Virus record (IMG/VR): IMGVR_UViG_3300042940_001755
DNA length: 64,000 nucleotides
From: a virus
Taxonomy: Duplodnaviria; Heunggongvirae; Uroviricota; Caudoviricetes
Reading direction: 5' to 3' (one strand)
Below the pieces are notes generated by a model, which was not told the DNA's origin, searched no databases, and saw only the letters and a list, made by a program, of their open reading frames with translations. Shown here one piece after another: positions 4,739-53,371 of the stretch; position 1 is the first letter of the stretch, and every line of letters starts with the position of its first letter. The position numbers were made by a program, and so were the translations under genes.

Positions 4739-4746
4739 TTAAAGAA

Positions 4747-4971
4747 CTACTCGCCAGTGAGACAGAGATTGACGATTGATTGCGCGTCTTTCTCAACACG
4801 CATGCAGGCCACAGCCTCCTTCAACTCAGCTAACACCCTGCTTAGCTCTGCATCGAGCTCCACAATGCGCTCAAACACTGGATCAGAGACTTCATTGCAT
4901 TCCACATCCAGCACTCGCACATCTACATTGACACGAATACAAACATTGTAATACATTTGCTGTTCTCCCAT
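4747..4971 (-). CDS. hypothetical acidic protein (74 aa)
   Basis: Co-oriented ORF. Confidence 0.4.
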   Translation of the reverse strand: MGEQQMYYNVCIRVNVDVRVLDVECNEVSDPVFERIVELDAELSRVLAELKEAVACMRVEKDAQSIVNLCLTGE

Positions 4972-12977: not shown

Positions 12978-13041
12978 GAAAAAAAAAAAATAGGTGGATA
13001 GCCTCACCCTACCTCCCGTTAGGGAAGTAAGATGAGGAGGG
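12978..13041 (-). terminator. Intrinsic terminator T3
   Basis: rc reads CCTCATCTTACTTCCCTAACGGGAGGTAGGGTGAGG CTATCCACCTATTTTTTTTTTTTTC. Confidence 0.7.
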
Positions 13042-13297: not shown

Positions 13298-13337
13298 GAG
13301 AGTATCTCCAATTTAGATTGAAACGGAATTGTTTCTT

Positions 13338-13367
13338 TCTTTCATATAAGATACCCTCATTTGCGCG
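13338..13367 (-). promoter_or_regulatory. Class B T7-promoter-like motif (sense CGCGCAAATGAGGGTATCTTATATGAAAGAAAG)
   Basis: One of five copies of CGCGCAnAAAnnnGTATCTTATATGAAAGA; CTTATATGAAAG resembles the CACTATAGGGAGA core of T7/SP6 promoters. Confidence 0.5.
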
Positions 13368-16021: not shown

Positions 16022-17341
16022 TTAGCATATAACACCTGCTCTTGCTCTCTTGCGAATGTCTTCAAGGGAATCATCACAGTACGGCTGACCATTGAAGTAA
16101 TAGTCAACAAAGTCTGGATGTGTCAATCTGCCGCCCTTAGAGCGCTTACCAGGGTCTGTGACAGGGTCTTTCACAGTATCCACCCATTTGCCATTGATCT
16201 CCATCGCTGAAGTCTTTTGAGCAAACTTATAGGTGTCTCTGTTTAGTTTCTGTAGCAAGCCGCCTCCAGAACCATACACGACATTCTCGGCTGCGTAACC
16301 TTCTTGTTCCACTACTTGTGTCAGCTTTACTAACGTCTCGAAGTCAATACCATCCCCTTGAATGATGCCGACATTGCTCAAGACCTTGTAGCCTTTCGAG
16401 TTAACTGTGCTTTCAAAATACGCGTCAAGTATCTCCAGGATTAGAGGGATTACTTCGACAGCATCACCACTGTCAGGGCGGATAACAGCCTTGATTTTTC
16501 TTCTCTGAATTTCTGCACCGAAGACATTACAGAACATGGAGGTATCATTGTAGATATCATATCCGTCTAACACGATTGACACTATGCCACCATCAGGGAT
16601 AGCATCTAGTACTCTACGTAAATATCCTCCCTGATTGTCCCTTCCGTACGCACATTGAACACTATGTTCCGTCGCAGGGATAGAGAAGCCAGCCATTCTG
16701 CAGAAGTAATTGTCACGCGCCATTATCAGCGCTTGCAGGTTATCAGTTCCTTGGAAGTTAACTAAATGTGCCACACCACCAATTGCAGCTGACTCTCTGG
16801 AAGTTACGCCCCTGGCACCAAAGTCATGGAGAGCGTACGCAGCCATTTCAGGTACATCTGAAGTCTGTGCATACAACGATTCCAACAGCAATCGAGCCTT
16901 TAGGCCGTTAGAGGCAATCGTTGTAGGATACCAGATAGCTCTCTGCAACGCCGTTTCAATATACGACGCTAGCCAGAACAGTCTTGGATCTGTTGTCTCA
17001 ATCACCACTAAGGGTGTCCGAGATGGTACCACAGAGCCTTCAGGTAAGCCTTGTATTAGCAGTGGCAGAAAGCCATTGTGCTCGTCCACAATAATCTCCC
17101 AACCAATCTTATTAAAGGGCACCCCATGCGCGGAGAAGAGTTTCTCCGCTTCTCTTATATCCCCGTGAGTAACAGGCGTTGAGAGATACTCACGGATGAA
17201 CATTTGAAGACCAAAGAAGCAAGTAGCTTCGTTTGCTACTCTCGCTTCGATATAGGCGAACTGGCCTGTGCTGCCTTCTGGGTAGAATGCTGCATGTGAA
17301 GCTTTGTAGCTGTCAGCGTTTAAGATTAAATTGTGACTCAT
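16022..17341 (-). CDS. nadV: Nicotinamide phosphoribosyltransferase (NAMPT/NadV)
   Basis: N-terminal ADSYKASH motif diagnostic of NAMPT, plus ~440 aa length and the GDG/GSGGGLLQ phosphoribosyltransferase core. Confidence 0.85.
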   Translation of the reverse strand: MSHNLILNADSYKASHAAFYPEGSTGQFAYIEARVANEATCFFGLQMFIREYLSTPVTHGDIREAEKLFSAHGVPFNKIGWEIIVDEHNGFLPLLIQGLPEGSVVPSRTPLVVIETTDPRLFWLASYIETALQRAIWYPTTIASNGLKARLLLESLYAQTSDVPEMAAYALHDFGARGVTSRESAAIGGVAHLVNFQGTDNLQALIMARDNYFCRMAGFSIPATEHSVQCAYGRDNQGGYLRRVLDAIPDGGIVSIVLDGYDIYNDTSMFCNVFGAEIQRRKIKAVIRPDSGDAVEVIPLILEILDAYFESTVNSKGYKVLSNVGIIQGDGIDFETLVKLTQVVEQEGYAAENVVYGSGGGLLQKLNRDTYKFAQKTSAMEINGKWVDTVKDPVTDPGKRSKGGRLTHPDFVDYYFNGQPYCDDSLEDIRKRARAGVIC

Positions 17342-33345: not shown

Positions 33346-33394
33346 AATAGACTCCTATTAGATGAGCTGTACCGAGATTGATACAGCTGAAATT

Positions 33395-39192: not shown

Positions 39193-39290
39193 GATACATC
39201 TCCAATATAGGGTTAGAGGACGACGGGATTGCCGCCCTCACAGATACTACGGTGACACAGATTAGAGACTGCGCCTCTCTCTTTTACTGC

Positions 39291-40534: not shown

Positions 40535-40866
40535 TCTAGCTCCTTTTCTTCTAAGCTAAGAGCCTCACCATTGACCATCACTATCTCGCCAGCACCAATG
40601 CTTCTAACAGCAGCAACGCTATCGATAAAGTCAACTAAGTCTTGGGAGAGTCTGTCTAGACTCGGCTTATTGCGGTACACTGCAATCAGGTTTACACGTG
40701 GACTCCCCTCTTCCCACTTAGTATGTAAATACCCAGAACTCAACACCCACACTGTCGTGACCGGCACAGGTGGTGTAAAATTAGGTCGTGACTCAGCTGC
40801 CAGAGCTGCGTAGTACGTATCATTTCCGCCCATTGTTTCCTCTATAATTGGATTAAGTGAAAGCAT
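40531..40866 (-). CDS. hypothetical protein (111 aa)
   Basis: Co-oriented ORF. Confidence 0.45.
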   Translation of the reverse strand: MLSLNPIIEETMGGNDTYYAALAAESRPNFTPPVPVTTVWVLSSGYLHTKWEEGSPRVNLIAVYRNKPSLDRLSQDLVDFIDSVAAVRSIGAGEIVMVNGEALSLEEKELE

Positions 40867-41617
40867 ATTCGCTCTCTAATACTGCATTGATGTCAAGTGA
40901 GCCGATTTCAAGACCTTCCCAGTTACCTGAGATATCATTCATCAGCGCTACTAGTGGATCGCTAGAGTACAGCTCAACAAACTTCTCTCTAGCGACTCTG
41001 AACAATACATCCATATCCGCACACAAACATCCGTAAGAGTCGTGGATGGTTGTCACAGGGAACTCACAGCCCACCTTAATCATCATTAAGTGTGCTGCAT
41101 CCATGCTATGAATGATATTAGGCGCTGCTCCTTGGCCTTGCTTGCGCTTAGCAGGGACTCGTTCTTCCTTGTGAAGTAGGCTAATCTTGATATCCTTGTG
41201 TCCATAAGACAGGATAACAGGCTTAATAGTGCCTTCTTCATAATGCTGAACCACTTTGAAGCCCGTTACAGGGACAGTCCAGCTGAGGAATTCACCTCTT
41301 TTCTCAGCAGCAATCCCTGCATTACTGAATATCTCAAGAAGCTTCATGGGTTTATTCATGCTATCTTTGCAGCTAGCGTAGATTAGTCTTCCCATGAATG
41401 CTCCCCATTTCCTGTCCAGGTCTAAGAGCGAATCGATGCCGTGCTTCTTGGCATCTTCTATGACCTGCTCAGACATCCCATAAGAAACTGCACCGTATGG
41501 GATAGTCATTACTCCCGCTTGTGTTCCGTAGATGTCGTTAGTTTCTACGCGTAGTTGGTCGCTTGTGTTATCTGACAAAATTGCCAAAAATCTTCTTTCT
41601 CGCTTTCTTCGCTGCAT
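40853..41617 (-). CDS. Single-subunit (T7-like) RNA polymerase, C-terminal segment (exon 2 or C-terminal half of a split gene)
   Basis: AGVMTIPYG .. APNIIHSMDAAHLMM .. VTTIHDSYGCL .. terminal EYAFT aligns with the T7 RNAP C-terminus (SVMTLAYG .. PNFVHSQDGSHL .. LIHDSFGT .. FAFA). The real 5' boundary is unresolved. Confidence 0.8.
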   Translation of the reverse strand: MQRRKRERRFLAILSDNTSDQLRVETNDIYGTQAGVMTIPYGAVSYGMSEQVIEDAKKHGIDSLLDLDRKWGAFMGRLIYASCKDSMNKPMKLLEIFSNAGIAAEKRGEFLSWTVPVTGFKVVQHYEEGTIKPVILSYGHKDIKISLLHKEERVPAKRKQGQGAAPNIIHSMDAAHLMMIKVGCEFPVTTIHDSYGCLCADMDVLFRVAREKFVELYSSDPLVALMNDISGNWEGLEIGSLDINAVLESEYAFT

Positions 41618-42008
41618 TAGCCGCAGCCTCTACCGTTGCAAAGGTACCTACAGTCTTGTTAACACCCCCTTCACAGACTCTAGCACGGTATTTACCAGAC
41701 TTCGTTGCAGTTACACCTTTAGCGCCGGTCTTCGCTCCTTTATTAGGAAGCGTGTTAATACGGTTCTCAGCCACTGAGGCTGCCCTCAGATTAGATATCT
41801 TGTTATTAGCAGGATTTCCATCCTTATGATCAACAACCTTCCCTTTCGGCACTGCTCCTTTATGCATCTCAAACACAATACGATGCACCATTGTCTTCTT
41901 GCCATTCTTCTCTACTTGCACATGCCCTTTGCTATTAGGCGAACCTGCCTTGCGGCCATTCTTGTGCAATAGCCCACCATTCTCTTTATCATAGAGATAC
42001 TCTACCAT
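41568..42008 (-). mobile_element. HNH-AP2 homing endonuclease ORF inserted within the RNA polymerase gene
   Basis: HNH motif GHVQV..MVHRIVFEMHKG..VDHKDGNPANNKISNLR and AP2 domain GVTATKSGKYRARV..TFATVEAAANA. It has its own strong RBS AAGAGGAGG and is in a different frame from the RNAP pieces. Confidence 0.8.
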
Positions 42009-42111
42009 ACAACCTCCTCTTTTGTAGCGACCAGCTACTGCTGCATATTCCGATGCAGGCCAGACTATATCACGATAGCAAATAGCTACCTCCCCCGTTT
42101 CCTGACACTTG

Positions 42112-43653
42112 TCAGTACGCCTTACGGCTAGTCGTTGAACCTTCTTTCAAACCATACTTCCCAGCATTATTTGAAACCTTGGCTGCTGATTGGCCATTAG
42201 CATCACACCATTGGGCTGTTCCAGCAATTAAAGGGATTTTACAAGCGCCTGTAATTAAACGCTTGACTATCTTTCTACGTTCTTTCTTGTCCTTGATACG
42301 ATTCCAGAATATGAAACAAGCAGAATCTTCTAGGAAATGATTTGCCTCTCTGTAGTTCTTTAGTCGTTCCCCTAAGACAACTCTGAGATCACTCCCACGC
42401 TCTGCAGCTCGCACTTCAGCCTTCATTTCTGTAACGACTGTGACGTAATTATCAGCAGCCGCCACTAATTTAGGGTCTAATTCTGCGATTGTCAGCGCGA
42501 TAAAGTTCCAGAGAGAATTTGCAACATACGCATACAAGTCACCAGGAAGTACTGATTTGACAAGATTCACATAGGGCGCAGATGTTTCATCTCTCGTCAG
42601 CATAGCTAGATGTTGACTTCCATTGGTGCTTCCGTCTATGAAGCACTCAAGATGGCTCACAAAAGTCTCTGGATTGCCACTTCGCCATGCTGCTTCATAC
42701 TCCATACAGGCTGCTAAGAACTGCCAGCACTTGTCAGCGCCCATCCACCCTTTAAAGAGCTTGGGTGATGTAGCATACGCCATGATTAGCTCATGATTAT
42801 CATCTACCCACTGCACTCTTTCCTCCAAAGGGATCTTGTCAGTCTTTGCTTTGTCTTCTCTGGCAGAAGTGCCCGCCCAGTTACTGGCAATTGATATCTT
42901 CAGCCATTTAAAGCCAATAGCTCCTAGCGGTTTTGCATCAGCTCGTAGTAGAAGGCCTTTGGCAACATCAGCGCCTTGTTCATGGAGGTAAGCAGATGCG
43001 ACATAGATACGTCCTCTGAAGTCTGTGTAGTAACCATGGTAGAAGATAGCACCTGCCAGATCTTGCGCCATTGTCAGGACTGTGTTGACTTCTCTACCTT
43101 TGGTGATTCTTGCCTCCTTTGAGACTTGTTTCCAAATATCTGAGAAGGCTTCCTCACGGTACTTATGCGCCCATATAGCAATTGCCAGCACTCTCTCGTT
43201 TACTTTCCATCCTACTGCTTGGGCACGGTTAACAGCGTCCAATACCATTGCAGGAACAGCCGGTAATACTGCTCGCGTCTTGATAAGTGGGTAAGTCAGC
43301 TGATCGTGTGTCCTAGAAGTCCAAGGAGAGTAAGGAATAAGTGAAGGGTAGACTGTAGTACTCTGTTTGGAACACTTCCGCCAAGCCTCCACAATAGCCT
43401 CATCATTCAGAACAGCCACTGTGTAGGCACTCTTCTTCCCTATACGTTCTACCTGTATCTTGAGAATCCTGGCAGCTTCAAGGTCGTAGACAAGATCTGC
43501 TGCTGCTTGTGCTCTTACTCTGGAACTGGGATCTCTGGAGAGTTTCGAGCCGAGCGCTGTCAGCACCTCTGACAACACTATTGGCTCATTATATTTAGCC
43601 CTTGTGTACAGAAACAACACCTCCGTAACAGTAGGACAAAGTTCACTAAGCAT
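42112..43653 (-). CDS. Single-subunit RNA polymerase, N-terminal segment (exon 1 plus read-through into the insertion)
   Basis: YHGYYTDFRGRIY and ECFIDGSTNGSQHLAMLTRDE align to T7 RNAP DWRGRVY and DGSCSGIQHFSAMLRDE. The last ~90 codons have no RNAP similarity, so they are probably intron or insert-derived. Confidence 0.8.
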   Translation of the reverse strand: MLSELCPTVTEVLFLYTRAKYNEPIVLSEVLTALGSKLSRDPSSRVRAQAAADLVYDLEAARILKIQVERIGKKSAYTVAVLNDEAIVEAWRKCSKQSTTVYPSLIPYSPWTSRTHDQLTYPLIKTRAVLPAVPAMVLDAVNRAQAVGWKVNERVLAIAIWAHKYREEAFSDIWKQVSKEARITKGREVNTVLTMAQDLAGAIFYHGYYTDFRGRIYVASAYLHEQGADVAKGLLLRADAKPLGAIGFKWLKISIASNWAGTSAREDKAKTDKIPLEERVQWVDDNHELIMAYATSPKLFKGWMGADKCWQFLAACMEYEAAWRSGNPETFVSHLECFIDGSTNGSQHLAMLTRDETSAPYVNLVKSVLPGDLYAYVANSLWNFIALTIAELDPKLVAAADNYVTVVTEMKAEVRAAERGSDLRVVLGERLKNYREANHFLEDSACFIFWNRIKDKKERRKIVKRLITGACKIPLIAGTAQWCDANGQSAAKVSNNAGKYGLKEGSTTSRKAY

Positions 43654-43990
43654 ATTGTCTCCAATTAGCAGTTTTACATCATGCTTAGGATATCGGAAAT
43701 GTAATGTTACCTTTTCTTGTGCGCAGGTGGCTTGCGTGGCTTGCCAGATAATTGACAGACTACTGCCGACACTAAGTAAATTACGAGGAATCTAACCAGC
43801 ATCGTGGACTCCTTTCGCTACAAGATAAATAACGCTTGATACAACGATTGCAGGGACACTAGGCCCCAATAAAACAGCACCTGCAATAACAGCAATTAAC
43901 ATAATGGTCCTCACTGTGATCGCAGATACGAACAGCTAATTTGAGTTGAATTTAAAAAGATAAAGGAAATACACTAAAGTCCCTAACAGC

Positions 43991-44209
43991 TTAACTGGGC
44001 ACTACCCTCGACACGCAGGAATGATTCGCATCCCTGTCTATGTCTTTCTTCTTAGCACGAAGCGAACGCTCCCACGCTTTCAGATATACTTCGATATCAT
44101 CTAGTTCCCACTCAGCGCGGTCAGGTATCCGACCAGAATACCTTGCACACTTCATCTGTATGCTGTCTATTCCTAGACGCCCCATCACATACGTTTCATC
44201 AACTATCAT
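43991..44209 (-). CDS. hypothetical protein (72 aa)
   Basis: Co-oriented ORF. Confidence 0.35.
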   Translation of the reverse strand: MIVDETYVMGRLGIDSIQMKCARYSGRIPDRAEWELDDIEVYLKAWERSLRAKKKDIDRDANHSCVSRVVPS

Positions 44210-44356
44210 TGGACCATTCTCTTGCTAGGAGGGTACGTCATGATTTCCTTCTCATACAACTGGAAGGCACCGATAAGCTCTCTGTACTTGAAATCGAGCT
44301 TTGTGTAATTGCGGATAACAATCACATTCACTAGAATAGAGATAACCAGAAGCGTC

Positions 44357-44563
44357 TCAGTCATCTAACGACTCCTTCAGTAAATACGCATCCTTCCAGT
44401 GATGATCGTAGGTGGCGTCTCTTAAGACTTCTCTCAAGATTTCTGTCTTATCCAAGTCAAACTCTGGGATAGTCTCTGACACATACTCCACAAAGGAGAC
44501 CGTTTCTTCTGCCATTACTCTTTCGGCGACTCTACGCGCCAACACATTATCTACCACATTCAC
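44357..44563 (-). CDS. hypothetical acidic protein (68 aa)
   Basis: Co-oriented ORF. Confidence 0.35.
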   Translation of the reverse strand: MNVVDNVLARRVAERVMAEETVSFVEYVSETIPEFDLDKTEILREVLRDATYDHHWKDAYLLKESLDD

Positions 44564-44568
44564 CCCCC

Positions 44569-44931
44569 CTAATAGAAAACTAAATCACCTGAAGCGACCA
44601 TCAAGTTCTTAGTCTTGAAGCGCTTCCCTTTCTTCCTCGTATTGAAGAATTTGAACTTCTTGCCTTTCATGCCCTTCGCTCTGGCCCCGTGTAGCGCCGC
44701 CCTGGCCGCCCTCTTAGCTAGCAACACTGCTTTTGCTTCAGCAGGATTCTTAGCCTTGAACGGCCTTAAACGATGACGCGGGTACCAAGAGAACTGCCCA
44801 GGCGCTGTAACTACGCTGCAAGGCTTTCCTCCTCTGTCTAATATTACATTCGCTACTCCTAAGTTAGTGTTAAGACCTTGATTCTGGCTTTCCATCAATA
44901 ACGCCAGTACTATACAGCCGAAATCTGTCAT
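44569..44931 (-). CDS. Putative endolysin: SleB/CwlJ-type cell-wall hydrolase (Hydrolase_2) with a cationic C-terminal tail
   Basis: ALLMESQNQG..GVANVILDR..KPCSVVTAPGQFSW matches the SleB-family catalytic region. The C-terminus KKGKRFKTKNLM is highly basic. Confidence 0.5.
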   Translation of the reverse strand: MTDFGCIVLALLMESQNQGLNTNLGVANVILDRGGKPCSVVTAPGQFSWYPRHRLRPFKAKNPAEAKAVLLAKRAARAALHGARAKGMKGKKFKFFNTRKKGKRFKTKNLMVASGDLVFY

Positions 44932-44943
44932 AAGCTTCCTGTA

Positions 44944-44992
44944 AGAAAAAAAAAAATAAGGGGAGTACAGACCACCCCGAAGGGTGGTCTGT
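44944..44992 (-). terminator. Intrinsic terminator T4
   Basis: rc reads CAGACCACCCTTCGGGGTGGTCTG TACTCCCCTTATTTTTTTTTTTC. Confidence 0.75.
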
Positions 44993-45000
44993 ATAGTCAG

Positions 45001-45345
45001 TTAAAGAGCTTTGCAACGCTCTACTAGAGCGAAGACATGAGGAACTACTAAGATGGGACGCTCTCTAGGCGTCACAGATATTGCACGATACATGCAATCG
45101 TCTAACACCACATCTCTCTCAACCAAGATAATGGTAGCGAGTGTGAGCTTTTGAGTGTCTGCGTAGTACTCCTTAGTCTTAGGGTCCCAAGACAAACAGT
45201 CCACTTGCAACGTTCCAGAGATTCTTGCTGCAGCTAAAGCCTTCTCTGTAGACTCTACTAATTCCGCTACAGTCTTGTTGTATTGTCGGGAGCACAGACC
45301 GACAACTAGAACGAACAAACCACCTACCAATAATAAAGCTGGCAT
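45001..45345 (-). CDS. Membrane-anchored protein (N-terminal TM), possibly i-spanin-like
   Basis: N-terminal LLLVGGLFVLVVGL; position next to the endolysin. Confidence 0.3.
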   Translation of the reverse strand: MPALLLVGGLFVLVVGLCSRQYNKTVAELVESTEKALAAARISGTLQVDCLSWDPKTKEYYADTQKLTLATIILVERDVVLDDCMYRAISVTPRERPILVVPHVFALVERCKAL

Positions 45346-45450
45346 ATTAACCTCCCGTCATGATTGCATAAAGGACTGCGATAAAGTACGCAAATTTCAC
45401 AGGTGCCAAAGCTGCGATAAACGCGATTAATAACATCACATGAATTAGTT

Positions 45451-45717
45451 TCATTTGTTGAACCATTTCACCAAGCTGTAAACTGTCAAGCCTACAGCGG
45501 CGCCTAAGATAATTGGATTAACCGTTACAACTGCTGCTGCTGCTGAACGGGCCACGAATGGTAATACAACTTCCATACCAAGTGCTGTCACTGCCACTTG
45601 GGTTTCTACTGCAGCCAAACCTACGCTGACGACCATTGGCGCCATTTGTGTTGCCACTGCTGTTCCTGCTGCTGCTCCGAATGCTACTGCTGCTGTGTCT
45701 TGTGTTACTACTTTCAT
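45451..45717 (-). CDS. Small Ala/Val-rich membrane protein, family A copy 1 (88 aa)
   Basis: ~85% identical to 48677..48943; 2-3 predicted TM helices. Confidence 0.55.
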   Translation of the reverse strand: MKVVTQDTAAVAFGAAAGTAVATQMAPMVVSVGLAAVETQVAVTALGMEVVLPFVARSAAAAVVTVNPIILGAAVGLTVYSLVKWFNK

Positions 45718-45733
45718 GATAATACTCCTAAAT

Positions 45734-45810
45734 TGTGTTTAAAGTAGAGAGACGGAATTGTCTCTCTACCTGAATAGACTGTGGTCTGGTAAAACGGGAT
45801 ATCCGCTGCC
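45734..45810. repeat. Post-stop hairpin-pair element copy a (AGAGAGACGGAATTGTCTCTCT plus ACGGGATATCCG)
   Basis: Perfect 8-bp inverted repeat around GGAATT plus a GGATATCC palindrome; four copies in 45.7-48.7 kb, each starting at a stop codon. Confidence 0.7.
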
Positions 45811-45814
45811 TCAG

Positions 45815-46051
45815 TTATACGTTGATGTACAGTTGAGCGTAGCCGCCCAATTCTCTTTCTTCCACGCCAACGATGTAGACAGAGTCTTCTCTGCCTTCAA
45901 CGATGCGACCGAGGGCTTCACAGCCTCCGGCAAGGTACGCAATGCCATTGTACACGTGTCCTCTTACTGCCTCATTTTCGAACACTACTGCTCCGGCTTT
46001 CGTAGTGTATGTTACGTCGAAAGTGGTACCAAATAATTTAATTGTGCTCAT
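45815..46051 (-). CDS. hypothetical protein (start MSTIKLF, 78 aa)
   Basis: AGGAGA RBS before the internal ATG. Confidence 0.45.
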   Translation of the reverse strand: MSTIKLFGTTFDVTYTTKAGAVVFENEAVRGHVYNGIAYLAGGCEALGRIVEGREDSVYIVGVEERELGGYAQLYINV

Positions 46052-46231
46052 TGCGGCTCTCCTAGTTTGATGATAAAAGTGTTCTGAAGAAGTTGTCTTC
46101 TTCACGAGCTGATTTGCGCTCTTGCGCGATTTGTTTCAATGCCATCTCGATTGTGGCATTTAAACGTTCTTCAAGACTTCTAGTGTCTTCTACTAATGGT
46201 AATTCTGTGTTCATGATAATACTCCTAAAGG

Positions 46232-46298
46232 GGATAAGGCAGAGAGACGGAATTGTCTCTCTGCAGCGGTCTGATGAAACGGGATATCCGTTACCGCA
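46232..46298. repeat. Post-stop hairpin-pair element copy b
   Basis: Same two palindromes. Confidence 0.7.
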
Positions 46299-46725
46299 TT
46301 GATACTACATAACCGCGCATTGAGCCTGTAACTGATGCACCGATTGCATCCGCTACAGCTGTTTGGCGAGCCATTGATTCTCCAGCTAGCAACTGAAGAT
46401 TTACTTCTGATACACGAATGCGAACAAATCCGTTGTTCATTAGACCTGTTTCACGGAAAGTGTTGTAGCCGTCTCTTTCAAGCTCAACACCCATTGAGAT
46501 CAACTTAAGGATGATGCGTTGCGCATCACGATTGAAGATACCTCCGACTACTTCGTCGAGACCTTCTTGATACATGTCCATGTCGATGCATACTCCTGGG
46601 TTGTTTGCGATTACTTCGCGGATGGCTGCAAACTCACCACGCATTTCAATACGGGTGCCATTGTCTTCGAAACGGATACGAACGTTGTTTGCTGTAGTTG
46701 CTGCTGTTGTGTTCAATAAGTTCAT
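46291..46725 (-). CDS. hypothetical protein (start MNLLNTTAATT, 144 aa)
   Basis: Conserved initiation context GGAGTATTACCATG shared by the module genes. Confidence 0.45.
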   Translation of the reverse strand: MNLLNTTAATTANNVRIRFEDNGTRIEMRGEFAAIREVIANNPGVCIDMDMYQEGLDEVVGGIFNRDAQRIILKLISMGVELERDGYNTFRETGLMNNGFVRIRVSEVNLQLLAGESMARQTAVADAIGASVTGSMRGYVVSMR

Positions 46726-46801
46726 GGTAATACTCCAAATAAGATAAAATAATTGTGACCGGAATTGGTCTTGAAGGAACATCTTATGATGCAGGTGCCG
46801 C

Positions 46802-47077
46802 TTACGCAGCAGCTTTAAAGAATTTGACGACAGAGTACCCAATATCAGCATCACCTGTCAACTCCATTCCACCGAACTGCTCTGCCAAATACGCAGCGCG
46901 GTCAGCGTCATAGCTGAGGACGCTTAATTGCACTTCTGTGATGCCGACACTGATACGACCCATTTCATCACGGCGACTGTCATCGTAGTTGAAGCGGTCA
47001 TAAGCCACTTCGTTAAAGACCATACCTAATTTCAACGCTGCTGCTACTACTTCTTTTGCCAATACTAATGTGCTCAT
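46802..47077 (-). CDS. hypothetical protein (start MSTLVLAKE, 91 aa)
   Basis: RBS GGAGATTCAAAATG; class B motif ~70 nt upstream. Confidence 0.45.
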   Translation of the reverse strand: MSTLVLAKEVVAAALKLGMVFNEVAYDRFNYDDSRRDEMGRISVGITEVQLSVLSYDADRAAYLAEQFGGMELTGDADIGYSVVKFFKAAA

Positions 47078-47136
47078 TTTGAATCTCCGAATAAAATAAT
47101 TGTGACCGAATTGGTCATGAAAGGATACCTTTATCT

Positions 47137-47163
47137 CTTTCATATAAGATACTGCTTTCCGCG
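47137..47163 (-). promoter_or_regulatory. Class B T7-promoter-like motif copy
   Basis: Sense CGCGGAAAGCAGTATCTTATATGAAAGAGATAAAG. Confidence 0.5.
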
Positions 47164-47173
47164 TATTTGCTGC

Positions 47174-47461
47174 TTACACTCGTGACACTGAAGAGAAAAT
47201 AGCGATGATCAACCCACACATCAACATCCACCCAACGAGATAGATTGCCATCAACACTTTGAAAGAAAGAATCGCGACTGGAAGGAATGCTGCTCCGCAG
47301 TACGCTTCTGCAATAACGCCAATAATTGAAGCAGACACTGCTGCATCAGCTGTTACTTCAACTAATTCTGCTGCTGCTGTTTTAACTTCTAATACGCTTT
47401 TTACTGCTTTGATTGCTAATGAAACTGCAACTGCTGTGCCTAAGATTGCTAATGGTAACAT
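47174..47461 (-). CDS. Small hydrophobic membrane protein, family B copy 1 (95 aa)
   Basis: Paralog of 48271..48561; multiple TM segments. Confidence 0.55.
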   Translation of the reverse strand: MLPLAILGTAVAVSLAIKAVKSVLEVKTAAAELVEVTADAAVSASIIGVIAEAYCGAAFLPVAILSFKVLMAIYLVGWMLMCGLIIAIFSSVSRV

Positions 47462-47476
47462 GATAATACTCCTGAA

Positions 47477-47552
47477 TTGTGTTTAAAGTAGAGAGACGGA
47501 ATTGTCTCTCTACCTGAATGACCAGATTGTGGCGCAGGATATCTGCTGCTGG
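47477..47552. repeat. Post-stop hairpin-pair element copy c (variant second hairpin GCAGGATATCTGC)
   Basis: Same first palindrome. Confidence 0.7.
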
Positions 47553-48023
47553 TTAGTTGATTAATTTTGCAAGCTTGTGAACGCGTATCTCGGTCATGCA
47601 CCAGACCCACATACGACGAAGTAGACTTTTTTCCGTAGTCTTAAACGTTTGATACGCTTTCTTCAAGAAATCAATACCAGCTTCTGGAGACGCACCTAAA
47701 GACATCGCAACCGCGTCAGCAGCTGGTTCATCTCGTTCTGAAATCAGACGATACCCTTCAGCGATGTGTCCGCTCAAGATATGCCCAATTTCATGCAACA
47801 CAACAAAGTTAACTTCATCGGTTGGTGCAGTTGTTACAAGTGAAATACCAAGTACTGCCACAGCTCTTTCTGTAACTACAGACGCGTTGCCTACTTCTGG
47901 TAACATTGCCCGTATTGCAGCACCACCACCAGCAACCACATCCAACTCATGGTTGGCTTCGTGATTGATCCATACTTCTACACCGTGTATCTCTGCTTGA
48001 AATACTAAATTGCCCAAGTCCAT
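47553..48023 (-). CDS. Putative Zn-metallopeptidase (HExxH, ImmA/IrrE-like)
   Basis: VVLHEIGHILSGH contains HExxH plus a downstream H; 156 aa. Confidence 0.45.
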   Translation of the reverse strand: MDLGNLVFQAEIHGVEVWINHEANHELDVVAGGGAAIRAMLPEVGNASVVTERAVAVLGISLVTTAPTDEVNFVVLHEIGHILSGHIAEGYRLISERDEPAADAVAMSLGASPEAGIDFLKKAYQTFKTTEKSLLRRMWVWCMTEIRVHKLAKLIN

Positions 48024-48049
48024 CGTAATTCTCCAAAATGTTTAATTGA

Positions 48050-48247
48050 TTAGTTGGCAGCCCTGGCTGCCATTCTTGCACGCATTGCTGCCATTTGTGC
48101 TTCACGTGCAGCTGCTTTCGCTGCATATTCAGCTTGGAATGCTTCGTGCTCTTTGTCGAGCGCATCCGCCGTTTCAAACAATTCAATGCTGAAGTCAAGA
48201 CCGGTGTTTGCTCTTAATGTTTGTAACATGTCTACTGTAGTGTTCAT
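48050..48247 (-). CDS. hypothetical protein (start MNTTVDMLQ), Ala/Arg-rich C-terminus
   Basis: AGGAG RBS before the internal ATG at 48247. Confidence 0.4.
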   Translation of the reverse strand: MNTTVDMLQTLRANTGLDFSIELFETADALDKEHEAFQAEYAAKAAAREAQMAAMRARMAARAAN

Positions 48248-48270
48248 TGTAATGCTCCTGGTAAATTGAA

Positions 48271-48561
48271 TTAAATACGTGATGATGATGCTGAAAGAAC
48301 AAAGAGAATAAATCCGCACATTAGCACCCACCCCACAAGGTACATTGCCATGAAGATTTTGAAAGAAAGAATTGCAGTTGGTAAGAATGCTGCTCCAAAG
48401 AAAGCTTCAGAAACCATACCAACGATTACTGAAGATACTACTGCATCAGCTGTTACTTCAACTAATTCTGCTGCTGCTGTTTTAACTTCTAATACGCTTT
48501 TTACTGCTTTGATTGCTAATGAAACTGCAACTGCTGTGCCTAAGATTGCTAATGGTAACAT
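48271..48561 (-). CDS. Small hydrophobic membrane protein, family B copy 2 (96 aa)
   Basis: Paralog of 47174..47461. Confidence 0.55.
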   Translation of the reverse strand: MLPLAILGTAVAVSLAIKAVKSVLEVKTAAAELVEVTADAVVSSVIVGMVSEAFFGAAFLPTAILSFKIFMAMYLVGWVLMCGFILFVLSASSSRI

Positions 48562-48573
48562 GGTAATACTCCG

Positions 48574-48597
48574 AATAATAATAATAATAATAATAAA
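48574..48597. repeat. (AAT)8 microsatellite in the 5' leader of 48271..48561
   Basis: Read directly; absent from the paralogous leader at 47461-47480. Confidence 0.9.
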
Positions 48598-48677
48598 ATG
48601 TGTAAAGTAGAGAAACGGAATTGTTTCTCTACCTGAATGGACTGCGGTCTGATGAAACGGGATATCCGTTACCGCAT
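48598..48677. repeat. Post-stop hairpin-pair element copy d (AGAGAAACGGAATTGTTTCTCT variant)
   Basis: Compensatory changes keep the stem paired. Confidence 0.7.
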
Positions 48678-48943
48678 TATCTGTTGAACCATTTCACCAA
48701 GCTGTAAACTGTCAAACCGACAGCTGCACCGAGAATGATTGGGTTAACTGTTACAACTGCCGCAGCTGCTGAACGTGCTACAAATGGTAATACAACTTCC
48801 ATACCAAGTGCTGTTACTGCGATTTGTGATTCTACCGCTGCAAGACCAACGCTCAAAACTACTGGCGCCATTTGTGTTGCCACTGCTGTTCCTGCTACTG
48901 TTCCTGCTGCTGCTGCTGTTACTTCTTGTGTTAATGCTTTCAT
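48677..48943 (-). CDS. Small Ala/Val-rich membrane protein, family A copy 2 (88 aa)
   Basis: Paralog of 45451..45717. Confidence 0.55.
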   Translation of the reverse strand: MKALTQEVTAAAAGTVAGTAVATQMAPVVLSVGLAAVESQIAVTALGMEVVLPFVARSAAAAVVTVNPIILGAAVGLTVYSLVKWFNR

Positions 48944-49004
48944 GGTAATACTCCGAATAATTTAATTGTGACCGGAATTGGTCGTTGAAGGGATATCTTT
49001 ATCT

Positions 49005-49033
49005 CTTTCATATAAGATATCCCCTTTTGCGCG
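49005..49033 (-). promoter_or_regulatory. Class B T7-promoter-like motif copy
   Basis: Sense CGCGCAAAAGGGGATATCTTATATGAAAGAGATAAAG. Confidence 0.5.
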
Positions 49034-49034
49034 T

Positions 49035-49253
49035 TTACATGTCTACCAATTTAGACTGAAACTTGTCCTTCAGCACACAATGCACGCACACATGTACATG
49101 CTTGTTTGTTGCGCTGGAGAAATGGTAAAACGAATCGTAACGCTCTACTCCACCACATTCATCACAATACCCGTGATTGCGATCTGGAGTGGTGATGACA
49201 ACTTCTTCTTTAGATTTTACTGATGACATGGTAATACTCCCAAATGGATTCAA
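49035..49253 (-). CDS. hypothetical zinc-ribbon protein (CDECG .. CVHC)
   Basis: Two CxxC pairs. Confidence 0.4.
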   Translation of the reverse strand: MNPFGSITMSSVKSKEEVVITTPDRNHGYCDECGGVERYDSFYHFSSATNKHVHVCVHCVLKDKFQSKLVDM

Positions 49254-49626
49254 TTAATTGCGTGCCCGTGGACCAACTGCGAAGTAGAGCTTGTCACGCA
49301 AGCGCCATTTCTTCGTGGCAATGAGACCTTCGTGGAACTCGTGATACAAGATCACCGCTGCATACGCTACCGTTGCAAGCAGCGTTGTCCAAATACATGC
49401 CAACCCATACGTGCTCATACGCTCATCCCTGCTAAGATTTTCTCTACCCGTTCTGCCAAAGAATTGAAATGGTCTTCGCTGTCGCCACTCAATTCTTTAA
49501 AGGCAACCCCTGCTGCTGTTAAAATCTCTGTCAAATCTTCTACATCTTGAACTTCCAATACTGCACATAGTTTTAAACTAATCATAACGCCCTCGCTAAA
49601 GTTAGGAGCAGAACCATTTCTACTCC

Positions 49627-49654
49627 TTTCATATAAGATACTGCTTTCTGCGCA
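49627..49654 (-). promoter_or_regulatory. Class B T7-promoter-like motif copy, abutting a GAAAGGAG RBS
   Basis: Sense GCGCAGAAAGCAGTATCTTATATGAAAGGAGTAGAAATG; it precedes two small untracked ORFs (11 aa, then ~56 aa at about 49415..49585). Confidence 0.5.
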
Positions 49655-49655
49655 T

Positions 49656-49928
49656 TTACACTCTTATGGAACGCACCCAACTGTTGTACTCTTCTGAACC
49701 GACAATGCCGAAGGCCTTCTCAGCTGGTGTTAACACTTTGCACCCAGCCTTCTGCCACACTGCTTTCACTTTGTTGTCTGTTGTCGGCAAGCAAGCTGCT
49801 TGTGGCTCCCCATTCTTATTCACAATATACAGAATTGCGAATTGTGATTGCCAATAACGGCTGGACAGTTCTTTTGGGGTTGCAAAGGTTGGCATCCCAG
49901 GCAATACTTCGTAAGTCTCAAATAACAT
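49656..49928 (-). CDS. hypothetical protein (90 aa)
   Basis: Co-oriented ORF. Confidence 0.4.
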   Translation of the reverse strand: MLFETYEVLPGMPTFATPKELSSRYWQSQFAILYIVNKNGEPQAACLPTTDNKVKAVWQKAGCKVLTPAEKAFGIVGSEEYNSWVRSIRV

Positions 49929-49987
49929 AATATTTACTCCACTAGATTGATAAAAGGCGCAGAACCATTCCTACGCCTGCCACTACA

Positions 49988-50485
49988 TCACAACTTAATC
50001 GCTTTGATTATTTCATTATCCGTGAGTCTACTGAGATACTTTACATCGAGACCTATAACAGTTAACTCCGCATGCACTTCAATTAGTTTAGCCCGTTCCC
50101 ACTTATGCAAAGCCTCAATAGGTGCAACTTTCAACAGTCTACCGAGAGCAAGCTTGGTGTACAGTTCCCCTCTCCTTTTTGCCTCTGCTTTTGACATACG
50201 CTTTAGCGCGGCCAGATTAGCAACTATGAAGTTAACATGGATCACTGATTTGACCCTCTCCGTCTGGAACTCAAGACTGACGGAGTTTGCGGCTTCCTCG
50301 TAAGTCCTGTATAGCTTCCCGGCTGCCAGGAATAGAGGTGTTTTAGTTGTCACCTCCATGCAGTGCTTGACTACAGCGCCAGGACCGATGTCTACTATGG
50401 GCGTAGTGGTGCAGCTGAGGTTCAGCGCACTATTGAATTCCTCTACAGAACCCTCCCATTCTTTTAGTTCGATAAAATTGTTCAT
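49988..50485 (-). CDS. hypothetical protein (start MNNFIELKEW)
   Basis: The class B motif overlaps the ORF-track N-terminus; GGAGAACTATTATG. Confidence 0.45.
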   Translation of the reverse strand: MNNFIELKEWEGSVEEFNSALNLSCTTTPIVDIGPGAVVKHCMEVTTKTPLFLAAGKLYRTYEEAANSVSLEFQTERVKSVIHVNFIVANLAALKRMSKAEAKRRGELYTKLALGRLLKVAPIEALHKWERAKLIEVHAELTVIGLDVKYLSRLTDNEIIKAIKL

Positions 50486-50524
50486 AATAGTTCTCCTAAA
50501 TGACTGAATAACGGGATTGTTATC

Positions 50525-50554
50525 CATATCATATAAGATACCTAAAAATGCGCG
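50525..50554 (-). promoter_or_regulatory. Class B T7-promoter-like motif copy
   Basis: Sense CGCGCATTTTTAGGTATCTTATATGATATGG. Confidence 0.45.
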
Positions 50555-50730
50555 AGTACAAAGTCTCGATTATTCAGTCCTATGAATCTCCACCTAGCTA
50601 TCTTCGCCGAGAAGTCAACTGCTTCGCCATTATCGTCTATTAGCACCAGCTCATCTAGCTTAACTTCATTGAGGCTTCTCAGGAACTCTGCCGCCGCCTT
50701 TACTTCGCTTATCTTGAATTCTTTATTCAT
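50542..50730 (-). CDS. hypothetical protein (start MNKEFKISEV, 62 aa)
   Basis: The longer track ORF N-terminus is a translation of GC island 4. Confidence 0.35.
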   Translation of the reverse strand: MNKEFKISEVKAAAEFLRSLNEVKLDELVLIDDNGEAVDFSAKIARWRFIGLNNRDFVLAHF

Positions 50731-50744
50731 AATTGCCTTACTCG

Positions 50745-50885
50745 TTGTTGTGAATTTTGGCGACACGCGCCCAGTCTGCCCACCACGCTGCCCCGTGACT
50801 CTCACCCGCGCCGCCGAAAAACGCGCCACACGCGCCCACAGCGGCTGCAGAACTAGTACACTCGCGTGGCTAGTCAGGAATGCCG
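50745..50885. repeat. GC-rich island 4
   Basis: Contains cccgcgccgccgaaaaacgcgccacacgcgcc; same family. Confidence 0.6.
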
Positions 50886-51127
50886 TCACCGTTACTATCC
50901 TTAGTAGCGACTAAGCCGCCGCATAGCAATACAATAACAATATTCTTAATCGCATCATATTGCTCCGGAGTCAACTCCACAAGATGGAAAGATGTTAATA
51001 AGGTCAACGTTGCAGGGAGCAATCCCATCCACGTTGACGGTTCTTTTAGTCTGTTTTTAAGATACTTCATGCACTTCTCCTGTAGTGTGTCGTAACAGCC
51101 ACCATCGTTCCTCCTCTGTCGAACCAA
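50870..51127 (-). CDS. Small membrane protein (2 TM), holin-like candidate
   Basis: GLLPATLTLLTSF and IVIVLLCGGLVA hydrophobic segments. Confidence 0.35.
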   Translation of the reverse strand: MVRQRRNDGGCYDTLQEKCMKYLKNRLKEPSTWMGLLPATLTLLTSFHLVELTPEQYDAIKNIVIVLLCGGLVATKDSNGDGIPD

Positions 51128-51549
51128 TCGTACTCCCCTAAGATTCTATTGAATACTGCGCGAGTGCTGAGAACACTATTTGCAGTGACTACTTCGTATT
51201 TCAAAGCCTCTGCGTAGTCTAGCACAAGATACTGCGCTTCTACTAGTGCCTTCACTGCCTTTCTACCGCGCAACGACGTATGGTATCCTGCCAGTGTGAG
51301 TGTCTTTCTACGGCTATATAGAGGACACCCGCCTTCCACCGCCGATAACCACCCTACTAGATCTTTACCGTCGTACTGCACCCTGAAAAGCCCTCTGCGA
51401 GATAGACCCATAAGACTCTGTAGCGAGTAGCTTTCATCTATTGGAAACTCAGGAATTTGATCTTTCTTGTATTGCGCGATAGAGATGGTCAGACAGCGGC
51501 GAAGCTCGCTAAGATTACTAAGCCGCTTAAACTCCATAATCAGCACCAA
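51067..51549 (-). CDS. hypothetical protein (160 aa)
   Basis: Co-oriented ORF. Confidence 0.45.
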   Translation of the reverse strand: MVLIMEFKRLSNLSELRRCLTISIAQYKKDQIPEFPIDESYSLQSLMGLSRRGLFRVQYDGKDLVGWLSAVEGGCPLYSRRKTLTLAGYHTSLRGRKAVKALVEAQYLVLDYAEALKYEVVTANSVLSTRAVFNRILGEYDWFDRGGTMVAVTTHYRRSA

Positions 51550-52019
51550 TTAAGGATTTCAGAAGCGCGTTCTGCTGTTAACAAATTTAGCTCTACTAAA
51601 CGGGCTACGCCGTCATTGAGAGTCTGGTCAATCTTGATCACCTTGGCTAAACGTGCATCATCAAGAATTCTAAGGAAGTCCACAACATACGCGTCAGTGC
51701 TGGCGTAAATCGCGACACGCTCGTCTGTGGTGAACCGCAGCTTGAATGCCACAGGATTTAAGGGAGAAGCCAAGGCGGTGGCAATTGCAATATCTTGAGA
51801 CGAAACAGGCGCTCCTGCCATGACAGGAGGTGGCGCTAGCATGTCCACCACCTCCTGATCTGTTTTACCAATATAGATGTCGGCCAATACACCGTTGATG
51901 ATGCGGTAGCGCTCAACAATAAGACTGTCGTTTACGCCTAATTCAAAGATGGGGAATAAGATACCATCAGCAGACGCCGATAAGTAGCCTTTATCTGGTT
52001 GTGGAAAATAAATAAACAT
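51540..52019 (-). CDS. hypothetical protein (159 aa)
   Basis: Co-oriented ORF. Confidence 0.45.
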   Translation of the reverse strand: MFIYFPQPDKGYLSASADGILFPIFELGVNDSLIVERYRIINGVLADIYIGKTDQEVVDMLAPPPVMAGAPVSSQDIAIATALASPLNPVAFKLRFTTDERVAIYASTDAYVVDFLRILDDARLAKVIKIDQTLNDGVARLVELNLLTAERASEILNWC

Positions 52020-53371
52020 TAAAAGCCTCCAATATAAAGTCGGTTACCGCTAGACGTCTTAGGCGACGCCAGCGATGTTGTTGTTGTTCCTGCAAGTAGA
52101 GCATTCTTGATATCTGTCATTGTTGCAGCAGGATGATACGCTTTGTAAAGAGCTGCAGCTCCTGTGACATGAGGCGCCGCCATAGAAGTCCCGTTAAAGG
52201 ACATATATTTTGAGCTCCACTCACGAGTCGTTGGATCGAAAGAAGGGACGGAAGAGTTGATACTGACACCGGGTGCACCAAGTTCTACACAGTTACTTCC
52301 ATAATTACTAAAGGAAGCCAAGGCGCCTGCGCTGTCGATTGCTGCAACGCCTATGACGTTTGCTTGGGAGTAACATACAGGATACACCGGCGTTGAATTG
52401 AGATTTACCGTAGAGTTACCTGCAGAAGTTACGAACAGTATTCCTGCAGAATTTATAGCATCAATAGCTGACGACAACGCAGTAGACGGTGAAGTGCTAC
52501 CTCCCCACGATGCGTTGATCGCCACGATAGGGACGCTTTTGTAGTTCTTCATGTAGGCTGCATAATTCAAAGCTCTAGCAGCTGCATCTGTGTAGCAGGC
52601 GCCTTTCTCGCAGACCTTAAGCGTCATGATCTTCGCCGTCCAACAGATACCTGCAACACCGATTGAATTCCCTCCTCTCCCTGCAATCGTTCCCGCAACA
52701 TGAGAGCCGTGAGAATTTGCAGACTGCGTTACAGACGCTCCAGTAATGTCGCTAGAGTATCGTGGCACGTAGGCAGAGCCGTTCCATGTCAGCTCCATTC
52801 CTCCTGAGTCATATATCGAGGAGTTGTTGCCATCGAAGTCCCATCCGTAAAGATCGTCTTTGTAACCATTGGCATCATCGTCATAGGTGTTAAAGCTCTC
52901 TCCAGGATTGGACCAGATGTTATCGATTAAGTCCTCATGCAGATTATACGTACCTGTATCAGTGATACCTACGACTACGCTACTACAATCTGTTCTACCA
53001 TTCGCCCACGCCGAGCTAGCACCGCTGCCGTATGTGCCGAACATGCCCCACAAATATGAACTGTTGGCGTACGTATCATTTGCAGTGGCGTCTGTCTTGT
53101 AGATCTGGTTCTTCTCTACATACTTGACGCCAGACTTTTTAAGGAGTATTCGGGACAGTAGCTCCAAATTACTACCTCTAGGGAGAGTAACAGACATTGT
53201 ATCGCCATCGATCATCGTCTTCAACTCGCCTTTAACAGACTTGAGGATACCTTCTCTATCTGCTTCTTTATGAAAGCCGATGATAAGTGTGTCTCTTTGA
53301 AAGTCAGCCGAGACATCTGCCGAGAACAGTATCAACGTCAAGAATAAAAATCTAATCATAATCATAATCAT
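52019..53371 (-). CDS. Secreted subtilisin-family (peptidase S8) serine protease with signal peptide and I9-like propeptide
   Basis: Catalytic triad contexts VGITDTG (Asp), HGSHVAGTIAG (His), GTSMAAPHVTGAAAL (Ser). N-terminal MIRFLFLTLILFSADVSA signal. Confidence 0.8.
   Translation of the reverse strand: MIMIMIRFLFLTLILFSADVSADFQRDTLIIGFHKEADREGILKSVKGELKTMIDGDTMSVTLPRGSNLELLSRILLKKSGVKYVEKNQIYKTDATANDTYANSSYLWGMFGTYGSGASSAWANGRTDCSSVVVGITDTGTYNLHEDLIDNIWSNPGESFNTYDDDANGYKDDLYGWDFDGNNSSIYDSGGMELTWNGSAYVPRYSSDITGASVTQSANSHGSHVAGTIAGRGGNSIGVAGICWTAKIMTLKVCEKGACYTDAAARALNYAAYMKNYKSVPIVAINASWGGSTSPSTALSSAIDAINSAGILFVTSAGNSTVNLNSTPVYPVCYSQANVIGVAAIDSAGALASFSNYGSNCVELGAPGVSINSSVPSFDPTTREWSSKYMSFNGTSMAAPHVTGAAALYKAYHPAATMTDIKNALLAGTTTTSLASPKTSSGNRLYIGGF

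Follow-up and report, generated by a model that had tools for sequence, protein, structure and literature searches.

Hexaloop hairpins in repeated 5′ leaders of small orphan genes: a candidate RNA-level cassette family in an uncultured phage with a T7-type RNA polymerase

In the 64,000-nucleotide (nt) stretch of IMG/VR virus record IMGVR_UViG_3300042940_001755 that we analysed as a whole, hereafter the window, two small hydrophobic proteins, A and B, are each encoded twice between positions 45,451 and 48,943, and four similar non-coding elements with paired hairpins lie among the genes of this module. What do these elements do, and on which gene do they act? A preliminary description of the DNA took them for sites that start at the stop codon of one gene and at which transcripts are cut; our findings point toward the gene that follows. 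We read the four elements as promoter-less members of a paralogous family of 5′-leader cassettes acting on the downstream gene at the RNA level, and we put the probability of this reading at about 0.5. The minus strand carries all sizeable open reading frames (ORFs) of the window, those of the module included, and the elements lie on it as follows.

45718..45814, minus strand: element a, leader of gene A1; hairpin 1 at 45793-45807, AATTCC hairpin at 45742-45771
46215..46300, minus strand: element b, leader of a gene for 50 amino acids (aa); hairpin 1 at 46266-46297, AATTCC hairpin with a compensatory outer pair at 46239-46264
47462..47552, minus strand: element c, leader of gene B1; diverged hairpin 1 at 47521-47553, AATTCC hairpin at 47486-47515
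48562..48676, minus strand: element d, leader of gene B2; hairpin 1 at 48643-48676, AATTCC hairpin (GAAAC/GTTTC variant) at 48605-48634

The hairpin AGAGARAC-AATTCC-GTYTCTCT that had been described in them is present in all four, at 45746-45767, 46241-46262, 47490-47511 and 48609-48630, where shuffled sequence gave an expectation of 0, and the stems extend to 10-12 base pairs (bp). Folding, a check proposed with the preliminary description, gives two hairpins in every element, with z-scores of -4.3 to -5.2. The claim that one copy keeps its stem by compensatory change is borne out in copy d (G-C to A-U), and copy b provides a further case (U-A to C-G). Element d also contains the microsatellite that had been noticed there, (AAT)7.7 or (ATT)8 at 48574-48596, and its length varies across samples, with 8 units here versus 7 in contig L005. 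Covariance models of Rfam 15 run over 43500-52100 gave 0 matches at E<=1, and a literature search for an AAUUCC loop returned nothing relevant.

The four hairpins belong to a larger set. On the coding strand there are eleven hairpins with a C-AAT(T/C)(C/T)C-G loop, carried by at least six unrelated, covarying stems; seven of them lie at 45.7-50.5 kb and four elsewhere, at 13.3, 18.0, 33.4 and 39.2 kb. Shuffling the sequence 300 times gave on average 0.19 hairpins with an AATTCC loop and a stem of at least 4 bp, and never more than 2; 8 were observed, and the opposite strand holds one. The members that stand apart from the module are the following.

50505..50526, minus strand: TGGATAAC-AATCCC-GTTATTCA, directly after a promoter-like motif with its core at 50529-50541
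39216..39239, minus strand: GAGGGCGGC-AATCCC-GTCGTCCTC, 23 nt before a gene for a gp2.5-like single-stranded DNA-binding protein
33365..33388, minus strand: AGCTGTATC-AATCTC-GGTACAGCT, 19 nt before an 80-aa gene
18008..18031, minus strand: AGCCTCGTC-AATTCC-GGCGGGGCT, with two G.U pairs, stable only on the sense strand
13320..13354, minus strand: promoter-like motif at 13342-13354, then a GAAAC-AATTCC-GTTTC hairpin at 13320-13335

All eleven hairpins end 19-43 nt before a Shine-Dalgarno (SD) sequence and ATG, and the distance from hairpin to start is 24 nt in elements a, b and c, despite a different spacer sequence in b. The elements are tied to the downstream start codon at a fixed distance and not to the upstream stop codon; that each starts exactly at a stop codon, as had been stated, is true only approximately, copies b and d having TAA inside or just before the conserved block AATGCGGTAACGG. 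Across the family the loop columns show no or almost no variation, each of the 9 stem pairs has changed on both sides, and pairing is found in 86.7% of stem cells versus ~37-42% when the partner is slid. Members bearing G.U pairs are more stable on the mRNA-sense than on the antisense strand (-15.5 vs -8.3 and -14.9 vs -7.2 kcal/mol), which points to a role at the RNA level.

A second type of leader links the elements to a promoter-like box.

48944..49034, minus strand: leader of gene A2; motif core at 49008-49020, a hairpin from the predicted +1 with GATATCC, a GACC-AATTCC-GGTC hairpin at 48970-48983 and the ribosome-binding site (RBS) GGAGTATTACCATG
47078..47173, minus strand: leader of a 91-aa gene; motif core at 47140-47152, a hairpin from the predicted +1 and a degenerate GACC-AATTC-GGTC hairpin at 47103-47117
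46726..46801, minus strand: leader of a 144-aa gene; GACC-AATTCC-GGTC hairpin at 46757-46770, without the promoter-like motif
13342-13354, 47140-47152, 49008-49020, 49629-49641 and 50529-50541, minus strand: cores of the promoter-like motif

The GACCAATTCCGGTC element that had been assigned to three leaders is exact in two (46757 and 48970); a third, at 47103-47117, has degenerated and is one loop base short. In these type-2 leaders (46.7, 47.1 and 49.0 kb) and in the 5′ half of the hairpin-pair elements there is a common block, (G)ATATCC(C)-TTCA-GACC, so that the four elements look like promoter-less relatives of the same cassette. The promoter-less copies sit within operons, before B2, B1, the 50-aa gene and A1, and A2 has the promoter-bearing version.

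The conserved box itself spans ~30 nt, CGCGCA-N8/9-GTATCTTATATGAAAG, and is part of five leaders, at 50.5, 49.6, 49.0, 47.1 and 13.3 kb. In four of the five a hexaloop hairpin follows ~5-40 nt after the box (degenerate at 47.1 kb), and the fifth box, at 49.6 kb, is followed by a hairpin of a second family. This second leader-hairpin family, AGG(A/C)GTAG(A/G)A-ATGG-TTCTGC(T/G)CCT, is found at 49604-49627 and 49955-49978 (minus strand) with a compensatory change between its members, both of which lie ~20-25 nt before start codons and one of which comes right after the promoter-like motif.

Outside this phage, a bipartite form of the box, (T/C)(T/G)CG(G/C)AAA-N4/5-GGTATCTTATAT|GAAAG, is common to many uncultured 63-81-kb contigs that encode an RNA polymerase (RNAP) of the same clade (loci including L010, L017, L028, L029, L037-L041, L048, L051, L063, L068, L071, L075, L098 and L104). 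As a rule it stands a short way upstream of the RNAP gene. An exact copy of the 16-nt core is present in 96 IMG/VR loci, ~35 of which share the upstream TGCG(G/C)AAA part too, and in at least 11 of the IMG/VR loci a same-clade RNAP gene lies 0.7-3 kb downstream of the motif; a search for the motif in cultured phages gave no convincing case. Several of these phages have a hairpin whose first base is the G of GAAAG, as would fit transcription starting at this G. A sigma-70 reading of the box was rejected, its spacing and -35 region not fitting and a sigma-70 scan having found 16 sites versus 13.5 expected, and this misfit speaks against host RNA polymerase as the reader. The position of the box upstream of the phage polymerase gene favours the host enzyme or another early polymerase. 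TATA|GAAAG resembles the promoters of single-subunit RNAPs such as that of SP6, a likeness that favours the phage polymerase.

Comparable hairpins occur in the contigs L010, L028, L108 and L111. Two lie in L010 after the motif, GAGAAAGAC-AATCCC-GTCTCTCTC and GAAC-AATTCC-GTTC, and one in L028, AGAGTAGA-AATTCC-TCTACTTT, after the promoter-like box. One pattern scan of metagenomes returned five matches, and in two of them, L108 (9-bp stem) and L111 (6-bp stem), the hairpin is followed by GGAGTATTACCATG, of which 824 kb of other phage loci contain one further instance. The exact hairpin string was also matched twice in IMG/VR, in unrelated 130-166-kb contigs where it resembles ordinary terminators; we treat these two matches as possibly coincidental.

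The setting of the module bears on what such leaders could do. The phage is uncultured and siphovirus-like, of ~107.6 kb, and its gene for a T7-type RNAP is split. The same sequence was recovered as ~107.6-107.9-kb contigs in independent assemblies (JGI, ENA) with an identical arrangement of the module, which excludes an assembly artefact. At the end of the window lies the gene for a T5 pb3-like hub protein of 2751 aa, preceded by that of a 4092-aa tape-measure-like protein and followed by tail-fibre and S8 protease genes; in the direction of transcription there is then a run of small orphan genes ~8 kb long, from 51.5 to 43.7 kb, and after it come first the T7-type RNAP and then replication genes. 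By this order the module belongs to an accessory region of early type, immediately upstream of the polymerase gene.

Hairpins at a fixed distance before genes, in a phage whose polymerase belongs to the single-subunit family that includes the N4 enzymes, might be thought to act in the DNA, as extruded promoters like those of the N4 virion RNA polymerase or as sites for a DNA-binding regulator. N4 promoter hairpins have a 5-7-bp stem and a 3-nt loop, and the loop here is of 6 nt. A virion RNAP was sought and rejected, the giant ORFs being those of the hub and the tape-measure-like protein. Moreover, the G.U pairs favour the mRNA-sense strand over the template strand, and the variable stems speak against a double-stranded DNA operator. 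Action at the DNA level is therefore, in our judgement, very improbable.

Processing by RNase III or a similar double-strand-specific enzyme between early cistrons, as proposed in the preliminary description, has the setting in its favour: the elements are intercistronic, fold stably and belong to an early region that precedes a T7-type RNAP gene, and T7 is known to have such sites between its early genes. The structures themselves fit poorly. T7 R sites span about two helical turns, with a coaxial helix of ~20 bp in which upper and lower stems flank an internal loop, whereas the hairpins here are simple ones of 10-12 bp with a 6-nt loop, and other family members have stems down to 4-5 bp (4-9 bp). 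What is conserved is the loop, a part that RNase III does not recognise, and identical hairpins stand immediately behind the promoter-like motif, where cutting would have no upstream cistron to remove. With short simple stems, a conserved loop and such promoter-proximal copies, RNase III-type cutting finds poor support and we regard it as unlikely.

The same promoter-proximal copies bear on the possibility that the hairpins are terminators or attenuators that lower read-through between genes, since they would abort their own transcript. Stable hairpins after stop codons do suggest such a role; the copy at 18008 is followed by TTTCTTTAT, the degenerate hairpin at 47.1 kb was listed as terminator-like by a scan, and the stem-loops of the promoter-early stem-loop (PeSL) cassettes of T4-type phages, compared below, act as terminators (PMC2839356). 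On the other hand, most copies have no T-run after the stem (their tails being ACTTTAAAC or CCTTATCC), the terminator scan flagged 0 of the 4 hairpin-pair elements, and the genome has a separate class of GC-rich hairpins with T10-12. Termination is thus an improbable function for these elements. One member of the separate class bounds the module downstream.

44946..44993, minus strand: GC-rich hairpin, CTCCCCTTA and T11 (T10 in other samples, 44946-44956)

Further members lie at 12979-13037, 4690-4750 and 1687-1731 (minus strand), and in contigs L007 (760-800 and 1640-1695) and L008 (300-365). They consist of a long GC-rich variable stem, 4-10 nt (often ..CCTA) and T10-15, with a start codon ~10-20 nt further on; as the T-run is not adjacent to the stem, they are not textbook terminators.

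If, as we propose, the elements act on the downstream gene at the RNA level, a complete cassette would comprise an optional promoter-like box of ~30 nt, CGCGCA-N8/9-GTATCTTATAT|GAAAG, a first hairpin around (G)ATATCC, a second hairpin with a near-invariant C-AAUYCC-G hexaloop on a freely varying stem, and an A/U-rich spacer of 8-20 nt leading to a strong RBS, often GGAGUAUUAYCAUG. The hairpins would set the stability and the ends of mRNA segments, the 5′-near hairpin protecting the cistron that follows it and hairpin 1 guarding the 3′ end of the preceding one, and would keep the RBS exposed, while the hexaloop may be read by a putative trans-acting factor. As a result, the A and B genes could obtain their own expression level inside operons; the arrangement is the classic one by which each cistron can differ in the stability and translation of its mRNA. 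A pseudoknot between loop and SD (AAUUCC with GGAGU) was considered and rejected, the variant loops reducing the complementarity without covariation in the SD, and is kept as speculation only. The initiation context said to be common to all module genes, GGAGTATTAYCATG, is exact in seven genes, has two mismatches in two and is different in the 91-aa and 78-aa genes. Of the co-regulated, recently duplicated and RNase III-cut cassette envisaged in the preliminary description, what holds is that early-region genes lying ahead of a T7-type RNAP gene have repeated regulatory leaders in common; that they are regulated together is plausible.

A recent origin is contradicted by the A and B genes themselves.

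45451..45717, minus strand: gene A1, 88 aa
48677..48943, minus strand: gene A2, 88 aa, hydrophobic and rich in Ala, Val and Gly
47174..47461, minus strand: gene B1, 95 aa, membrane-type protein
48271..48561, minus strand: gene B2, 96 aa, membrane-type protein

Both pairs are real, and their products are strongly hydrophobic (GRAVY 1.1-1.6), but they are less alike than the 85-90% previously given: the genes are 84% identical in nucleotide sequence, and the proteins 84% (A) and 77% (B). For the whole A gene, synonymous divergence (dS) is 0.44 and non-synonymous divergence (dN) 0.11, and for its C-terminal 48 codons dS is 0.59 and dN 0.03; codons 42-92 of B give a dS of 1.16 and a dN of 0.27. 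These values indicate that both copies of each gene have been kept by selection: the pairs are old duplicates under purifying selection. Codons 1-41 of B stand apart, with a dS of 0 and a dN of 0.011, that is, 123 nt with a single, non-synonymous difference between B1 and B2, and this 5′ part is covered by a recent gene-conversion or recombination tract. In addition, the gene order A2-B2-65aa-peptidase-B1-...-A1 shows that no A-B unit was duplicated in tandem.

The elements are mosaic. Elements a and c precede different genes, yet over 61 nt their 3′ halves are 98% identical; b and d follow different genes, and their 5′ halves (hairpin 1) are 100% identical over 35 nt. Such identity compares with 84% for the duplicated genes and is far above the synonymous-site identity of the adjoining genes, and reflects selection, gene conversion or both. 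Together with the tract in B, the mosaic halves are suggestive of exchange, and the cassettes may have a second role at the DNA level as homology patches for recombination and gene conversion, which would account for the old duplications, the mosaic elements and the near-identity of B1 and B2 over their first 123 nt. Neither indel variants nor circles between cassettes were seen, the assemblies being identical save for repeat lengths.

The mosaic identity and the conversion tract raise the question of whether the elements have any present regulatory role, or are recombination scars or selfish repeats of the REP or MITE kind kept similar by gene conversion alone. Breaks of metagenome contigs inside the repeats would agree with this: contigs from other samples (the start of L005 and the ends of L006, corresponding to window positions 47490 and ~48633) begin or end exactly inside repeated hairpins or B paralogues, and the repeats therefore break short-read assemblies in exactly this region, which is also a practical warning. 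Against it, the elements keep to the sense strand and to a fixed distance from the start codon, their stems change in a compensatory way around an invariant loop, and the same leader position recurs in unrelated contigs; furthermore, neither terminal inverted repeats nor target duplications nor a transposase were seen. We consider purely passive repeats an unlikely explanation.

Several points count against leaders that act at the RNA level. The set used for covariation was selected for at least 4 paired bases, so that the inner pairs are paired by construction. Conservation of the loop could stem in part from common descent and gene conversion, not from recognition. Only 3 comparable leader hairpins were found in ~824 kb of motif-matched loci, a mixed set fetched by exact match to the promoter-like motif in which at least 11 loci have the same RNAP clade, and hence the hexaloop is no clade-wide requirement. 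The box, which is not sigma-70-like and lies upstream of the phage RNAP gene, has no assigned polymerase. Finally, we infer the transcript ends, the effects on stability and the trans-acting factor from the sequence alone.

Two bolder proposals go beyond this reading and are tentative, and we hold them to be possible but not probable: that the C-AAUYCC-G hairpin is a new cis-regulatory RNA motif, read by a phage or host factor that co-ordinates an early-gene regulon, and that the ~50-nt unit of hairpin, spacer and GGAGUAUUAYCAUG is a horizontally mobile "plug-in leader" for new orphan genes, exchanged between phage lineages.

Among known systems, the PeSL cassettes of T4-type phages have been shown to provide homology for exchange (PMC2839356; PMC4122927). 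As here, they are repeated intergenic cassettes of ~75-110 nt that stretch from the stop codon upstream as far as the downstream SD and ATG (PMC2839356; PMC4122927), they lie amid orphan genes in a plastic region, they join a promoter box to a stem-loop, and their conservation exceeds that of the flanking genes, with a link to recombination and shuffling that is tentative in the present case. The order differs, however, the box preceding the hairpins here and the stem-loop preceding the promoter in PeSLs; four copies here are without a box, the box is not sigma-70-like, the hexaloop is conserved, there is no terminator tail, and the phage is a siphovirus-like one encoding an RNAP and not a T4-type myovirus. 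Regions of orphan genes are the testing ground for new phage genes, and apart from the T4-type phages little is known of how such genes come by their expression signals. In this regard, the cassette described here would be a second, structurally different repeated regulatory cassette, in an RNAP-encoding uncultured clade, and suggests that cassette-mediated shuffling is more general; its invariant hexaloop offers a handle for studies of a binding factor, of mRNA stability or of translation, and the shared promoter-like motif an aid to annotating early transcription units in that clade.

The early RNase III sites of T7 (R0.3, R0.5, R1, R1.1 and R1.3) are likewise structured, between early cistrons and upstream of a single-subunit RNAP gene, but the present helices are much shorter and without an internal loop, the loop sequence is conserved, and some members lie near the predicted 5′ end of the transcript. 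Stabilising 5′ stem-loops, such as those of the T7 phi10 and ompA leaders, and REP/BIME elements share a stable 5′ or intercistronic hairpin, an unstructured A/U-rich spacer and a strong SD, and offer a plausible route by which single cistrons could have their own half-life; they have no sequence-specific loop, and REPs are host elements mobilised by RAYT transposases, none of which was seen here. The boxB hairpins of lambdoid phages, in turn, are short, carry a sequence-specific loop and lie shortly downstream of early promoters. Their loops, however, are of 5-6 nt and of another sequence, they occur once or twice per genome, compared with 7 copies in 5 kb here, and they need the N protein and boxA, whereas no N-like protein or boxA was identified in this phage.

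The proteins encoded by the module give few clues to its function. No homologue of A, B or the HExxH protein encoded between their copies was found outside this phage in sets of 5.8 billion and 1.84 billion proteins, and A and B had no match in PHROGs, Pfam or NCBIfam, so that no homology to holin or superinfection-exclusion families was found for the role in lysis timing or exclusion that had been suggested. Weak A-like and B-like hits in contig L008 were rejected as not significant (E-values 5.1 and 0.12). We take A and B, for which hydrophobicity is shown, to be lineage-specific small membrane proteins and, like the HExxH protein, to have early accessory functions. The remaining genes of the module are the following.

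47553..48023, minus strand: HExxH protein, 156 aa, with HEIGH and a downstream ExxAD-like motif
48050..48247, minus strand: 65-aa orphan gene with RBS GGAGCATTACAATG
46802..47077, minus strand: 91-aa orphan gene
46291..46725, minus strand: 144-aa orphan gene, whose last codons and stop codon lie within a conserved element block
45815..46214, minus strand: 50-aa and 78-aa orphan genes

The HExxH protein is thus present where it had been placed. Its HEIGH and ERDEPAADA segments align with the motifs of Ste24p, its score against Pfam M48 is 19.8 bits at a cut-off of 20.3, and its AlphaFold model is unusable (pLDDT 40). Its Lit-like and M48 matches are confined to the neighbourhood of HExxH, with scores under the cut-offs; the 156-aa protein is a candidate for a minimal M48-like metallopeptidase.

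Downstream, the module adjoins a cell-wall hydrolase gene, as had been reported: a small SleB-type hydrolase (Hydrolase_2) is encoded at 44569-44931 (minus strand), immediately before the RNAP gene, where endolysins are not usually found, and this position is kept in the relatives with 82% and 69% RNAP identity (L007 826-1203; L008 414-749). The position recalls T7 lysozyme, which regulates T7 RNAP.

40853-43653, minus strand: split T7-type RNAP gene, with ORFs of 513 aa and 254 aa, interrupted by a gene for a 146-aa HNH_3/AP2 endonuclease at ~41.6-42.1 kb

The same split is found in the 82%-identity relatives, and most members of the clade have an intact enzyme (~745 aa). The RNAP is at best 33% identical to those of cultured phages, a scan of IMG/VR for its relatives gave none, and a megablast of the region against GenBank phages was without match, so that no close cultured phage was found. 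The relatives at 82% and 69% are short contigs that end before the module, and are silent on the conservation of the elements. The contig of the 82% relative, L007, begins with an apparent Illumina adapter remnant (TTCCCTACACGACGCTCTTCC, positions 1-21); this could have arisen in assembly, or could mark a physical end of the DNA, ~1.7 kb upstream of the RNAP gene of that contig.

Elsewhere in the window, the phage encodes a nicotinamide phosphoribosyl transferase (16022-17341, minus strand) and an ATP-dependent DNA ligase (11177-12448, minus strand). A GC-rich, apparently non-coding stretch (GCGGCGCGGGTGAGAGTCACGGGGCAGCGTGGTGGGC...) at 50735-50880 (minus strand) borders the small-gene region on its upstream side; it could represent a genome end, serve in packaging or be regulatory. 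At the start of the window, a 161-nt unit in two copies, dense in short repeats of the CTTTAAAG type, and a perfect tandem array of four 21-nt units (GAGGGTAAGGTTTGGCTTACT) occupy positions 1-325 and 1248-1331, and these arrays may be origin-like or regulatory.

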